Source: an uncultured Bacteroidales bacterium
GTDB taxonomy: Bacteria; Bacteroidota; Bacteroidia; Bacteroidales; Bacteroidaceae
Direction: 5' to 3'
NCBI GenBank assembly: GCA_902801485.1
Contig: CADCIP010000010.1
Location: 25,465 to 89,464, forward strand
DNA: 64,000 nucleotides
This document shows positions 20,142 through 63,944 of the stretch, piece by piece. Made by a program: the position numbers and the translations under genes. Within the stretch, counting starts at the first letter, position 1. Each line of letters starts with the position of its first letter. A model generated the notes under the pieces. It was not told the DNA's origin. It was given only the letters and a program-made list of their open reading frames with translations, and ran no database searches.

Positions 20142-23100
20142 TTATTCACCAACAATAACTTCAGTATCTTTCTTCACAATACCGGCATCACCACCGCCAA
20201 AGACGTTGCCCATGATGTTGGCACCGTTCATGATATGAACCTTTGTCCATACTGAGAGGGCGAACCATTCGGGATGCTCTACAGATTCATCACCGCGGCC
20301 TGCGCCATAAACCTCACCACCATATTCTTCTTTGTATCCCTCTATTACACCCACAGCACCAGCAATGTTTACGGTGTTGACAGCCATCATACCCTTCCCA
20401 TGGATATCGTCAGCATAGGGACCTTCACTTGTACTACTACTGAATAGTAGAGAGGGAGGAATAACACTGGCCAATGAACCACCGCCATATACGTTACGGT
20501 AAATGACGTTGCCTGGAGCTGCTTGTGTACCTGCTACACCAGTAATGCCATTGCCAACGTTAATGGTAGTTGTATGTGTAACGGAACCGGCAGAGCTACT
20601 ATTATGCATTTTTTTCTCGCTGTCCTCATACTTTCCGATACCAGATCCACCTCCATAAATGTTACCACGGTGCAGCCAGTTCAGGTTATTAAGCTCTTTT
20701 TCAGGCGTCAAATCTTTCGTACCTATCAGGGTTCTGTAAGTATCATTATATGGTATACCTATCTCACCCTTCTTAATAGACACGTTTGTGCTGCGGCGTA
20801 CATGTCCATCCTGACCTCCACCGTAAACAGAACCGTAGATGCGTGGGCTCGATTCGGGAACTGCTGGTTCGTAATTGTTATCGCCTACTTCACCAACAGC
20901 ATCTTTTGCTTCTTGCCCAATGGTTACATTTGTCTCGTTCACATAGCCACAGAAGAAATCTACAGTTCCTGAGTTCGGAACCATACTTCCTGGTTCTGCA
21001 GTAGCCTGACCACGACAACCGCCAAAGACATTACCCGTAGGCATATCATCCTTCGTGAGAACATTAAAGAGTAACTCCTTCATGTCGTCTGCATCGTCAT
21101 CGTCACTTTCAATAGCAGATTTATATGTGGTAGAGGTACCAGGATTTCCTTGTGCGTCACATGGGGTAACCACTGTATTATCGTTAGGCATGTAACCTAC
21201 AATACCACCTATAATATTAACTGTGGCGATGCCACTGTTCAGGAAATGCCATGCATTATCAGGATTTGCACTTGTGGTTTCTGTTGTCCACAGGTTGCCT
21301 GTAATCTTCTCTCCATAACCGTCAGGATAGAAGTCATCAGCACCACCGGCATAGTTACCCTTACCAATAGAACCCAGGTTACCACCACCATAGATATTGC
21401 GTAATACACGTCCACCGGTCATATTCACCTCTGTGTTACCATATACCTTACCGGCAGTAATGCTGTGGACTTTCTTTGACTCACCACTTGGGATGTATTT
21501 ACCTTTACCCTTACCACCGCCATAGACAGCATGCCCAATGAAACCATTCTTAATGTTCACCTGAGTGTTTTCATATACATGGCCATTTTCACCACCACCA
21601 TACACTGAGCCGGTAATACCGGGCTCCTCATCATTAAGTTTCAGAGAGAAGGCCAATTGATTGTCATCCTCATCTATCTTTTCATAAATCTCTATCTTGT
21701 CATCTCCTGGGGTGTAAGCATTATTATTGGCATCCTTGTAATCAATGTTCACCTCTGTCTTCCTCACGTTAGCAAACTGAGCCATTTCGTATCGGTCGCC
21801 CGCTTCACCTCTTGTACCGCCAAATACATCACCATTATCAGAACCCGTGGTGCCGATGCGTCCGCCAGTGATGTTGATGGTTGTCTTACCGGTCGAATAA
21901 GTCTTTTCAACAGGATCTTCTACGGTTAAATTTGGATACGTAAATTTGACAGGCCAGCTGAGTGCAAATCCATTATCCACATTATCGTGCTTAATGATAT
22001 TATTTGGTCCTTCCAATATTCTGCCTACGGAACCCATTGAACCGCCGCCATACACACTTTGAGCTATCAAACCTCCTGAGATATTCACATCGGTGTTGCC
22101 GATTACACAACCAGCCCATGTATTGTGAAGTTCTTCGCCTGAATCAACTTTGTTGTTATTGTTTTTGTCATCCCAGTAGGTATCCGTACCGCATCCGGCA
22201 CCATAAACATTGCCGCGTGTAATCCAGGCTTTTTCATTAATCTTATCATCACCGAAGTCAAACCAGGGATCTGTTTCATCCACAATACCTATGGTACCGC
22301 TCTTCACATTGACGGTTGCGTGAGTAAAGACATGACCGTTTTCACCACCGCCATATACGGAGCCCTTGATATGCGGGCCTGTTTTGCCAGTTTCTCCAAT
22401 GTTGACGATGGATTGTTCCACCCAAGCCATCTTGTCGTATGGGTCTTTATCAACAGAATGAGATGGTATAGACCACATTTCCGTAGGCACTGGCTTCGCA
22501 ATGTCTCCGCGAGAAGAACCATTAACCATACCGTTGTCCCGTCCGCTGATACCGATGGTGCCTCCCTTGATGTTGACCGTTGCAACTCCCGTGTTAGCTT
22601 CCCAATGGAAAGGATATCCCTTGGGGATATTCGCCATCTCATCGGTTTTTCCATCAGAGAAGGTAAATGTACCCACAGAGCCTAAGGCACCACCACCATA
22701 TACATTATGGTAAATGAAGGGCTCGCCCTCTTCGGAACCTGCGTTAATTGTAACATTGGTGTTACCCTTAACAACGCCAAGTAGGGTATGTGTCTTGTTA
22801 CCCTTACCACCACCATATACATTACCCATTGTGGCACCTCCAAACATCACATATCCAGGATCTGTATCTGTCTTGGGTTTTACTTCACCCTTACCAATCT
22901 TACCACCGCTTATGGTAACTTCGGTGTCGCCACCCACAGCAGCCACTTCACCGCCGCCAAATACGCTGGCCCAAACATGACCATCACTCATGCTGACAGT
23001 GGTATTACCATCGACGAGGGCACCCAATTGATTAACTTGAGCGTTTGTGGTAATCTCTCCAATTTCTGCTTCAGTTCCATATCCGCCACCATATACGCTA

Positions 23101-62006: not shown

Positions 62007-63944
62007 TTAAGAATTTGCTTTAACCTTGATTATCTTGATGTCATATTCACCTGCTGTACCAGCGGCTGTCATCGTATACAGGTTAGCCTTGTTAGCTTCA
62101 AAATTTGCTTCGTTGATACCTGCTGCAGGATAATAAACATTTTCAGAAGTCTTGAAATAGTAGGTCGCAGTAGTACTATAAGCAGCTTCTCCTACAGCGG
62201 CATATGTCGGAGCAGTATAAGGTGTGCGAGTAAACACATATACATAAGTGGCATCGGATGTCGTTGAAGGTGTGAACTTAACGGCACCGTTAGATCCAAA
62301 GTCGAAGTTTGTTCCATCAGCGGCAGGAACGTTCTGAACAAGAGTTGCAACCTCACCATCTGTAGTAGCCGCCAAAGTAATACCGTTGGGAGAACCTGTC
62401 AAACGAGCCTTGACAGTAGCTTCTGAGATCGCATCGCCTGTTGTCGTAGCTTTATAAACCTGTGCATTGTTAGTTGCCTCTCCAATAGCAGTTGGAGCAG
62501 CTACTACTGCGGGATTAGCAGCATTGTTCATCTTTACGACATAGATAGTCTCGCCTGATTTGTATTCATTGTTAGTTGTAACATCAGAGCCATTTGCATA
62601 GGTTGTAATTGAGTAATCTTCAAAGTTGGTGATGGTTTCTTGAGTTTTATCATCAGCAACAGCAACTACAACAGCGTCGAAGGTAATTGGATAAAGTCCC
62701 TGTACAGTACCATCAGTAGTACCATTGGTATTAGGAGCAATCTTGAAGATGTAGGTATAAGCAAAGTTACTCTTCCACTGTACATACTGAGTGGGAACTA
62801 CTACTTTTGCGCCCAGCACATGTATAACCTCACCACCACCATCTTCAGCAGTCAATGTGTAGTCAACCTTAACTAACATGGGGTTGGAAACTGCAGAACA
62901 AGGATAAACCGTTGTATATTCACCTATTGATGGACTACCTGACTTTGGAGTATCCCAAGTTGGCGTAGCTGATGATTGTGACAAGGTTGTGTTAACCACA
63001 CCACTTCCAAGTTCTAATGAATAATTATAATCAACGGTAGTTGGTGTTACTTTTACCTGATTCTTAATATCAGCTACTGCATCATCATTGTATGTAATGG
63101 TTAGCGTATTACTTGCGGCACTCTTGTTGATGTTCTGAAGAGAAGCTGCAAAATTAGTTTTTTCATTTTCCATAGCACTAAAAGAGGTAACAGGAGCTGT
63201 TGCGGGAGTAGCTGTAGTGCTTGCGTCACTATCAATATAGAACTTATTAATCTTTACAGAATAACCTGGAATTGTCTCATAGAAACCGACACGAACACGA
63301 GCACCGAAGTTACGGAAGGTCAAAGTAACAGGCTTGTTGAAGTCTCCTTTTTCAACAGGCTTGCGGTCTGCAACGAACAACTGGTCTAGGTTAGCGCCGC
63401 TACTAAGTACAACGCTATAGCCTTTGTCATAGACAGTGCTACCCGAAGTGGTTTTTGTGACAGTAACTTTGTTGTTGGTTGCAATGTCAGCCTTAGAGGC
63501 AATACCATAAAAAGTATAGCCCTCAGCTGCGCTGTAGTCCCAATACTTAATTGTTTGTGAGGTAGCAGCAGGAGATACTTTTGCATCTACATAAGGAGTG
63601 AGGCCAACGTAATCCCAGTTGTGAGTGTTGGACAATTTTGTTCCTGCAGAGTTTGCTGTATATTCTACTTTGTAGTTCGTAAATACAGCCATATCGTTAG
63701 TGGCATTTGCAGCCTCAGCAGAAGTATGCTTTGTACCATAAACGATGAACTGGTTCTGCAACTTTTCAGCAGCACTTTCACCTACAAGGTTTCCTGCACG
63801 GGTACCGTTCTGCATGTCGAAACCAAAGGTAATCGCACCAGAACCGGTGACATTCCCTTCTTGGTCTCCCATGTAGGTGTTCTCTGAGCAAGCGGCAAAT
63901 GCTAATATTGCCGTTGCAAGGAATAATTTGTTCTTCATGTTCAT
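62007..63944 (-). CDS. Fimbrillin-family lipoprotein, putative major (stalk) type V pilin paralog A, 645 aa
   Basis: MNMKNKLFLATAILAFAAC (Cys19), AITFGFDMQNGTRAGN (Arg49), QTIKYWDYS, VTLTFRNFGARVRVGFYETIPGYSVK, YTYIFKI. Collinear with the 642-aa paralog. Confidence 0.8.
   Translation of the reverse strand: MNMKNKLFLATAILAFAACSENTYMGDQEGNVTGSGAITFGFDMQNGTRAGNLVGESAAEKLQNQFIVYGTKHTSAEAANATNDMAVFTNYKVEYTANSAGTKLSNTHNWDYVGLTPYVDAKVSPAATSQTIKYWDYSAAEGYTFYGIASKADIATNNKVTVTKTTSGSTVYDKGYSVVLSSGANLDQLFVADRKPVEKGDFNKPVTLTFRNFGARVRVGFYETIPGYSVKINKFYIDSDASTTATPATAPVTSFSAMENEKTNFAASLQNINKSAASNTLTITYNDDAVADIKNQVKVTPTTVDYNYSLELGSGVVNTTLSQSSATPTWDTPKSGSPSIGEYTTVYPCSAVSNPMLVKVDYTLTAEDGGGEVIHVLGAKVVVPTQYVQWKSNFAYTYIFKIAPNTNGTTDGTVQGLYPITFDAVVVAVADDKTQETITNFEDYSITTYANGSDVTTNNEYKSGETIYVVKMNNAANPAVVAAPTAIGEATNNAQVYKATTTGDAISEATVKARLTGSPNGITLAATTDGEVATLVQNVPAADGTNFDFGSNGAVKFTPSTTSDATYVYVFTRTPYTAPTYAAVGEAAYSTTATYYFKTSENVYYPAAGINEANFEANKANLYTMTAAGTAGEYDIKIIKVKANS

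Follow-up and report, generated by a model that had tools for sequence, protein, structure and literature searches.

The DNA analysed here, called the window below, is a stretch of 64,000 nucleotides from an uncultured Bacteroidales bacterium (GenBank assembly GCA_902801485.1, contig CADCIP010000010.1, positions 25,465 to 89,464 of the forward strand). Its minus strand carries, in order, four genes for pilin-like lipoproteins and two giant genes for repeat-containing proteins of 4447 aa (giant 1) and 7536 aa (giant 2). We interpret these genes as part of a surface-appendage locus of rumen Prevotellaceae that follows the plan of the Mfa (type V) pilus of Porphyromonas gingivalis and in which the giants are coupled to the pilins; to this interpretation we give about an even chance. 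Only the first of the two giants has a known tag for export and anchoring, and the layout is without a characterised counterpart. All six minus-strand open reading frames (ORFs) of the original prediction were recovered by ORF listing, and the two giants, said to fill more than half of the window, occupy 35,955 of its 64,000 bases (56%). The window holds the downstream two-thirds of the locus.

Pilin-like lipoproteins

The first gene (62007..63944, minus strand, like all genes of the locus described below) encodes a large pilin-like lipoprotein of 645 aa, a candidate for a stalk-type pilin. It is followed by genes for a second large pilin-like lipoprotein of 642 aa (59935..61863), for a small one of 376 aa (58705..59835), and for a lipoprotein of 435 aa with a predicted pilin fold (57266..58573), which lies directly 5′ of giant 1 and is a candidate accessory or adaptor protein. 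Intergenic gaps among the first five genes, from the 645-aa gene to giant 1, are 99-167 bp. The 645-aa and 642-aa proteins are paralogs, as had been proposed (34% identity, E 2e-69 in BLAST), and the 645-aa protein is one of three large paralogs, the third being upstream of the window. With these two the 376-aa protein has its N-terminal domain in common (30% identity, E 6e-11), and the motif 'VPxQYxxWxxxxYTYIFKI' is found both in it and in the large paralogs. No BLAST relation was found between the 435-aa protein and the other three window lipoproteins.

Each of the four contains a lipobox (FAAC in the 645-aa, LTGC in the 642-aa, VGAC in the 376-aa and FSSC, with Cys64, in the 435-aa protein) and a 'TRA' motif 30-33 residues after the lipobox Cys, in the context GTRAG (645-aa), VTRAE (642-aa) and GTRAD (435-aa). 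In type V pilins, cleavage at an Arg site starts polymerisation (PMC5954841). The lipobox Cys was invariant in the alignments of the 645-aa and 435-aa families and at least 90% conserved in the 376-aa family. The Arg of the putative processing site is R49 in the 645-aa family (at least 90%), R63 in the 376-aa family (invariant) and R34 in the 435-aa family (invariant, Arg being at Cys+33 in 56 sequences); the Arg of the 'TRA' motif is also present in the paralogs of relatives. At the C-terminus the large paralogs are conserved as 'Y.(I/V)K(V/I)IKV' ('YDIKVIKV' in the 645-aa protein; the 642-aa protein ends in 'GVKVIKVDN'), and such a terminal strand would suit a donor strand.

Profile hidden Markov model searches of the window lipoproteins against the fimbrillin families gave no direct Pfam match, and matches to DUF1256, DUF3939 and YyaC in Pfam and NCBIfam were discarded as chance-level. 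Sequence and profile searches of the PDB with all three pilin families found no match. Among 56 members of the 435-aa family that were scanned with Pfam, none had a fimbrillin match, so the 435-aa protein is assigned to the pilins by its fold only. Homologs provide a bridge for the 376-aa protein, which appears to be a divergent member of the Mfa_like_1 family: an exhaustive search yielded 521 cluster representatives, and 18 of the 67 full-length homologs matched Mfa_like_1 (best E 9.2e-16). Its ortholog at the same position in the related locus L007 scored 27.7 bits against a cut-off of 27, and same-position orthologs in other loci gave weak matches to Mfa_like_2 and to P_gingi_FimA. For the 645-aa protein, over 7000 homologs exist at 63-73% identity; none has a name, and a precomputed Pfam fimbrillin domain is absent from all of them.

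Structure prediction pointed in the same direction. An AlphaFold2 model of the 435-aa protein, made from 56 diverse homologs, had a pLDDT (predicted local distance difference test score) of 82 and a pTM (predicted template modelling score) of 0.81. Through Foldseek comparison with the PDB, its top 25 matches all belonged to the type V pilin superfamily (E 1.6e-7 to 2.5e-3), among them 4h40 (1.6e-7), Mfa2 (5nfi, 7e-5) and FimA (6jzk, 1e-4), with both FimA prepilin and assembled FimA included. The model of the 645-aa protein (pLDDT 68) gave four significant hits, all to fimbrial or cell-adhesion proteins from Bacteroides (E 1.5e-6 to 4e-4), beginning with 4qb7 (E 1.5e-6) and continuing with 4gpv and 4k4k; Mfa4 came after the top four. 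From the predicted fold, the homolog bridge, the lipobox, the Arg and the paralogy, we conclude that the window lipoproteins are best placed in the type V pilin superfamily as divergent members. The original prediction that they are type V pilins thus stands at the level of the fold and of the homologs, and falls short in direct Pfam matches.

Giant 1

Giant 1 (43767..57110, minus strand) is composed of a signal peptide, a repeat region, about 2500 repeat-free residues and a C-terminal sorting domain. The ORF call begins at a TTG codon, and the ATG at 57098 is the likelier true start. The repeat region, made of 'xYGGG' units (aa ~45-1900; 51411..56978), contains 20-22 motifs depending on the pattern used, all within aa 53-1866. 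Repeats begin immediately after the signal peptide, the mature protein starting at 'QIRIGGNVYGGGN'. In eight orthologs a repeat unit likewise follows directly after the signal peptide, mostly after 'AQ' as '(I/V)K(I/V)GGNVYGGGN'. From aa ~1900 onward come the roughly 2500 residues free of repeats and then a conserved tail of about 75 aa. The body showed no Pfam match (vWA included) and no PDB sequence match, and a homolog search with the last 1,448 aa returned unnamed fragments only.

The tail (aa ~4375-4447; 43770..43988, minus strand) matched TIGR04183, the type A sorting domain of type IX secretion (T9SS), with 20.6 bits and E 3.3e-4 when scanned alone. When the C-termini of giant 1 and 19 orthologs were aligned, 12 of the 20 matched TIGR04183 at E<=0.01 (best 3e-7). 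These profile matches identify the end of giant 1 as a divergent T9SS type A sorting domain, in agreement with what had been predicted for this 13.3-kb gene. In P. gingivalis, Mfa5 also has a T9SS sorting domain and is joined to the Mfa pilus through adaptor pilins (PMC7835359; PMC5954841).

In two independently assembled related loci, L043 (5437-17005) and L044 (5512-17374), giant 1 is divided between two ORFs that overlap (about 1500 aa and 2300-2450 aa), with both breaks inside the repeat region at a similar position. A genuine gene boundary was considered and rejected, as a signal peptide is missing from the second ORF and the sequence runs on across the break; the splits are probably frameshift errors or pseudogenisation. 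Between giant 1 and the next giant of locus L039 there is a 1286-aa ORF (12600-16457) with a sorting-domain-like tail ('...GLYIVNGKKVVIK'); therefore the number of sorting-domain proteins per locus varies.

The 5′ regions of giant 1 and of the 435-aa gene resemble each other. A nearly identical stretch of about 55 nt covers the ribosome-binding region and the first ~17 codons of both genes ('MRRIKTI..KLI.P'; 58519-58582 and 57044-57107, minus strand). A DUF5119-like gene in locus L001 starts similarly with 'MRAIKTILKSI', and some giant 1 orthologs with 'MRRIITIL' or 'MRRVITIL'. This stretch could be a leader or a regulatory element that the genes have in common. Tandem repeats of 6-8 nt ('GTTTACG' x3, 'TTTAGAC' x2-3, 'GATAGGT', 'AGTGAAA') were also found 5′ of the 435-aa gene (~58600-58700) and of giant 1 (~57130-57225) on the minus strand; they could be slippage-prone tracts or binding sites.

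Giant 2

Giant 2 (20142..42752, minus strand) contains a signal peptide, a non-repeat head of about 1100 aa and about 6400 aa of repeats. In the head we found the Pfam families CHB_HEX_C_1 (E 6.3e-14, in two stretches, the better one at aa 360-414) and Fn3_assoc (E 1e-10), together covering aa ~270-414 (41511..41945, with the first stretch positioned visually), and Glug was matched weakly at aa 524-550; the head had no match among PDB sequences. Of the families that had been proposed for searching, CHB_HEX_C_1 and, weakly, Glug were matched in giant 2 and neither in giant 1. The repeat region (aa ~1160-7536; 20145..39275) contains 91-103 motifs, with the consensus 'GG.I.GNVYGGG..G.V.G.T.V.I..G', and reaches the last residues of the protein. 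Repeat units of the giants are about 26 aa apart where adjacent, and the repeat regions of giant 1 and giant 2 are 21-24% identical. By this periodicity both giants might fold as beta-solenoids; the beta-helix families of Pfam matched neither.

No NCBIfam match was found anywhere in giant 2, the last 200 aa included, and a sorting domain of either type is absent. The protein ends in '...GNVFGGGDAGIVKKDTEVIVGE*', right after a repeat unit. Six giant-2-type ORFs that could be read to the stop codon, from six species and 1644-2801 aa in length, end in the same manner, 2-6 residues past a 'GxTxVxI' strand. Since giant 2 lacks a sorting domain and ends in a repeat unit, the earlier idea of a T9SS-delivered adhesin pair is at best half right: it could apply to giant 1 and is not supported for the 7536-aa protein. 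We considered that giant 2 might be truncated or continue in another frame, and rejected this, as the downstream frames are not protein-like and the orthologs end alike. In three species an extra giant gene, with its own signal peptide and a giant-1-like repeat start, is located 3′ of the giant-2-type ORF.

The abrupt end within a repeat might also suggest that the giants are assembly chimeras of repeats or pseudogenes, and that a sorting domain was truncated off giant 2. Repeats could in principle mislead assemblers, and some relatives have apparently frameshift-split giants. This explanation is highly improbable and largely refuted. The exact 7536-aa sequence is recorded in NCBI and ENA, and nearly identical versions of 7525 aa and 7520 aa were also seen on other contigs, 165 and 300 kb in length. 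The internal module duplications of giant 2 are old, with 28-46% identity, which is too divergent for mis-assembly. In addition, the reading frame is uninterrupted over 22.6 kb, and the C-terminal end is alike in all six of the orthologous ORFs read to the stop.

Among the very large duplicated modules of giant 2, for example, aa 1700-2370, 3160-3740 and 4940-5565 resemble one another, as do aa 4000-4960 and aa 6110-7530. Orthologs range from 2110 to more than 7500 aa, and therefore the length of the rod varies widely between species. The plus-strand GC skew is -0.12 to -0.18 over giant 2 (20000-38000) and weaker over the non-repeat head at 38-42 kb; the coding strand of giant 2 is G-rich, as one would expect from its many Gly (GGN) codons.

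Conservation of the locus and its upstream genes

For the comparison of gene order, homologs of the 645-aa protein, of the 435-aa protein (35-38% identity) and of the C-terminal half of giant 1 were used as seeds. Every locus examined has the same order: a DUF3575 gene where the locus reaches far enough, a lipoprotein gene of about 400 aa, one to four large pilin-like genes (540-810 aa), two further genes (about 340-430 aa, then about 350-470 aa), and a giant of 4069-4233 aa, which is frameshift-split in two loci. The order of pilins followed by a giant was kept down to 35% identity in all loci inspected. When species-representative genomes were scanned with the last 900 aa of giant 1, 31 loci at 40-48% identity were found, nearly all in metagenome-assembled genomes of rumen Prevotellaceae or Bacteroidales. 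In at least 22 of the 26 loci whose downstream DNA is long enough, giant 1 is succeeded by a second huge, 'YGGG'-rich ORF on the same strand, which usually starts less than 100 bp after it. The gene neighbourhood is thus conserved in every relative examined, and the lack of conservation that the original prediction named as a refutation was not observed.

The locus as described for the window is incomplete: its upstream part is located beyond position 64000, as seen in L001, a contig with an identical 645-aa gene. Upstream of that gene, L001 contains a 522-aa outer-membrane barrel of the DUF3575 family (Pfam E 2e-12), a 394-aa lipoprotein whose DUF5119 match falls slightly short of the cut-off, the third large paralog (631 aa) and a ParE-type toxin-antitoxin pair. 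The DUF5119-like lipoproteins, which are above the Pfam cut-off in two relatives, have no 'TRA' motif and have conserved ends of their own. They are candidates for the anchor, because Arg cleavage cannot release them. In Bacteroides thetaiotaomicron, DUF3575 and DUF3868 genes were also described a few genes from an Mfa1-type gene (PMC10434189).

These upstream genes bring up another explanation, in which the locus does not make a pilus: the fimbrillin-fold lipoproteins and the DUF3575 barrel would form an outer-membrane platform, chaperone or export aid for a giant fibre, and giant 2 may exit in this way. The barrel protein is present in every locus that reaches far enough upstream, two to four large paralogs stand side by side per locus, and conservation in the 645-aa family is much higher than in the rest of the locus. 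Many Bacteroidales fimbrillin-fold lipoproteins in the PDB carry no annotation beyond that of a putative adhesion protein, and giant 2 has no known outer-membrane export signal. Against it, the Arg processing site and the conserved terminal strand are hallmarks of polymerising type V pilins (PMC5954841), and DUF3575 has no known function in protein export. We consider this explanation unlikely.

Small unrelated genes were observed among the pilin genes of relatives (L001 3439-4100, L005 13841-14617, L040 7916-8623, L042 6231-7130 and L044 2210-4237). They comprise one ParE-type toxin-antitoxin pair and several genes with weak 23S_rRNA_IVP (PF05635) matches, a family which includes accessory proteins of diversity-generating retroelements. 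A 2024 preprint (10.1101/2024.11.15.621889) reportedly linked diversity-generating retroelements to type V pilus adhesins.

Spacer and transcription units

The two giants are separated by a spacer of about 1 kb (42753..43766, no strand), which is rich in repeats and free of ORFs as predicted, with no ORF longer than 65 aa. Directly 5′ of giant 2 it contains an 86-nt tandem duplication (42779-42950) with two copies of 86% identity, and further short direct and inverted repeats are located at 43400-43540. The gene-proximal copy carries a promoter-like motif of the Bacteroidetes type, TTTG-N19-TAACTTTG (42809-42779, minus strand), 27 nt before the ATG of giant 2; in the other copy this element differs by one mismatch. 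This promoter pattern has five matches in the window, where 1.6 are expected, and 4 of 100 shuffles reach five, so the putative promoter of giant 2 is only suggestive. A sigma-70 promoter scan was set aside as uninformative for Bacteroidota.

In relatives the gap between the giants is mostly less than 100 bp, or else contains an inserted gene encoding a transposase-like protein or an ATPase. Such insertions were seen in L011, L026, L027, L031, L033 and L035, and the inserted genes encode either a REP-associated tyrosine transposase-like protein ('GIYHIT...MPEHLH') or a P-loop ATPase. They suggest an insertion hot spot at the junction of the giants. The possibility that the spacer is a relic of such intervening genes was rejected, as tblastn found no trace of them.

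Co-transcription of giant 2 with the upstream genes is doubtful, because of its own promoter-like motif and the unrelated intervening genes in relatives. In P. gingivalis, mfa5 may be transcribed separately from mfa1-4 (PMC5954841). Independent transcription of the giants is consequently no refutation of a functional link.

The same features could however be explained if the pilins and the giants are neighbours only, that is, an ordinary type V pilus with independent surface adhesins merely downstream of it, giant 1 being fixed to the cell surface as other T9SS cargo is and giant 2 being exported in another way. The promoter-like motif of giant 2, the transposase-like or ATPase genes between the giants in some species, and the absence of Mfa5 homology in either giant are consistent with this. 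According to one report, T9SS cargo of Prevotella is normally anchored on the surface by itself, presumably through C-terminal glycosylation (PMC11969387). Against mere neighbourhood, pilin genes and giants were adjacent in every locus seen, with proteins of 35-48% identity and in at least 30 species, and no giant 1 ortholog was found away from pilin genes (two loci were viewed from the giant side). The short gaps from the pilin genes to giant 1 (99-167 bp) and the 55-nt leader common to the 435-aa gene and giant 1 also argue for a link. We regard the neighbours-only explanation as rather unlikely.

Possible assembly of the appendage

If the locus does encode an Mfa-plan appendage with coupled giants, its assembly might be imagined as follows. 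The lipoproteins would be exported, lipidated and cut at an Arg about 30 residues past the Cys, and would then assemble by strand exchange, like FimA and Mfa1. Giant 1 may cross the outer membrane via the T9SS, guided by its C-terminal sorting domain, and stay attached to the cell surface or to the pilin assembly in the way of Mfa5 in P. gingivalis, with the 435-aa and 376-aa proteins as possible adaptors. Giant 2 would consist of a carbohydrate-binding-type head and an uncapped repeat rod, and its open C-terminal repeat could dock on the N-terminal repeat of mature giant 1, which is uncapped as well. The docked giants would then make a single long adhesive fibre with giant 1 at the base and giant 2 distal. 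Stacking of giant 2 on giant 1 is suggested because both ends are consistently uncapped.

Several observations weigh against the appendage with coupled giants. On the side of the pilins, none of the four window lipoproteins has a Pfam or NCBIfam fimbrillin match at E<=0.1, the TM-scores of Foldseek are low (0.3-0.5) with a 645-aa model of only moderate quality (pLDDT 68), and the 645-aa family, at 63-73% identity across species, varies less than is usual for a major pilin. On the side of the giants, the sorting domain in the window scored 20.6 bits, under the curated cut-off of 23, and the T9SS machinery of the genome is out of view of the 64-kb window. Giant 2 has a Sec signal only and no known outer-membrane export route, and neither giant is similar to Mfa5 or to a vWA domain in Pfam. 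The giants need not form one transcription unit, and giant 2 may be a unit of its own. Finally, contact between pilins and giants, and between the two giants, is a step that we infer.

The most far-reaching form of the proposal is a composite fibre, with a base of type V pilins, a T9SS-anchored giant, and further giants free of sorting signals stacked on it head to tail as beta-solenoids. We consider this quite unlikely. If true, the fibre would comprise more than 12,000 residues and be about 150 nm long (at ~27 aa and 0.48 nm per turn, by our own arithmetic on an unverified fold), and it would mean a new or piggy-back outer-membrane route for a 7,536-residue protein in Bacteroidota. Such a fibre formed by stacking would be categorically new.

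Other genes of the window

An rpsO gene and a gene for a YfhO-type membrane protein are located 3′ of giant 2. The remaining genes of the window are housekeeping genes, including a rhamnose operon, V-ATPase subunits and polysaccharide synthesis genes. The Rfam scan of the window gave no match.

Significance of the locus

We found no description of this locus in the literature, and its proteins are all named 'hypothetical protein' in the databases. Prevotellaceae are among the most abundant rumen bacteria, and the locus is conserved in at least 31 species-level genomes, where it accounts for 30-45 kb of coding sequence per genome. If the coupling of giants and pilins is true, the one known link between a type V pilus and the T9SS, Mfa5, would be extended to a very different scale. 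The locus also presents a secretion puzzle, namely how a 7,536-residue protein without a sorting domain is delivered to the surface and retained there, and it offers possible mechanisms by which rumen Prevotella might adhere to plant fibre or other cells.

Comparison with known systems

The closest known system is the Mfa1 fimbriae of P. gingivalis (mfa1-mfa5), and the likeness is in plan and parts. Both have lipoprotein pilins with an Arg processing site and a two-domain fold (both predicted here), several accessory pilins after the large ones, and a T9SS sorting domain on the last component, which is giant 1 here. The differences are also considerable. Three large paralogs are present here and one stalk gene in P. 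gingivalis; the anchor candidate (DUF5119-like) and the DUF3575 barrel are located upstream and not after the stalk gene; and the window pilins are too divergent for direct Pfam matches. Mfa5 has about 1,200 residues and a vWA domain, whereas its slot here is taken by a 4,447-aa protein without vWA and a 7,536-aa partner without a sorting domain. The giants are placed outside the Mfa5 family because they have no vWA domain. The homology with Mfa5 that had been implied was not borne out by Pfam, which gave only CHB_HEX_C_1, Fn3_assoc and a weak Glug match in giant 2 and nothing in the body of giant 1. The term 'Mfa5 slot' describes a likeness in position and sorting tag and implies no homology.

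In structure, the best matches of both lipoprotein models were the fimbrillin-fold 'putative cell adhesion' lipoproteins of Bacteroides and Parabacteroides (4qb7, 4h40, 3t2l, 4k4k, 4gpv). The presence of DUF3575 genes near Mfa-type genes is a further likeness to the loci of B. thetaiotaomicron. To our knowledge, no giant repeat proteins or T9SS cargo are associated with the DUF3575 loci of Bacteroides and Parabacteroides, and we know of no T9SS in B. thetaiotaomicron or B. fragilis.

Giant 1 may also be likened in function to SprB and RemA of Flavobacterium johnsoniae, which are very large repetitive surface proteins exported by the T9SS through a C-terminal sorting domain. SprB has a type B sorting domain and functions in gliding motility with its partners SprC, SprD and SprF. 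Neither SprB nor RemA has sequence similarity to the giants, RemA giving a weak, non-significant match to the profile of the giant 1 tail, and we know of no link of either to pilins and of no partner giant without a sorting domain.

A last likeness is to the beta-helical giants of Proteobacteria, filamentous haemagglutinin (TpsA) and autotransporter passengers, which are also long rods of short Gly-rich repeats with a functional head at one end and long N-terminal leader regions. Domains of two-partner secretion (TPS) or of autotransporters were not found in the giants by Pfam and NCBIfam scans. The proteobacterial proteins belong to another phylum and use another export route, type V secretion, and the comparison with them extends to a solenoid fold that is predicted here from sequence periodicity only.

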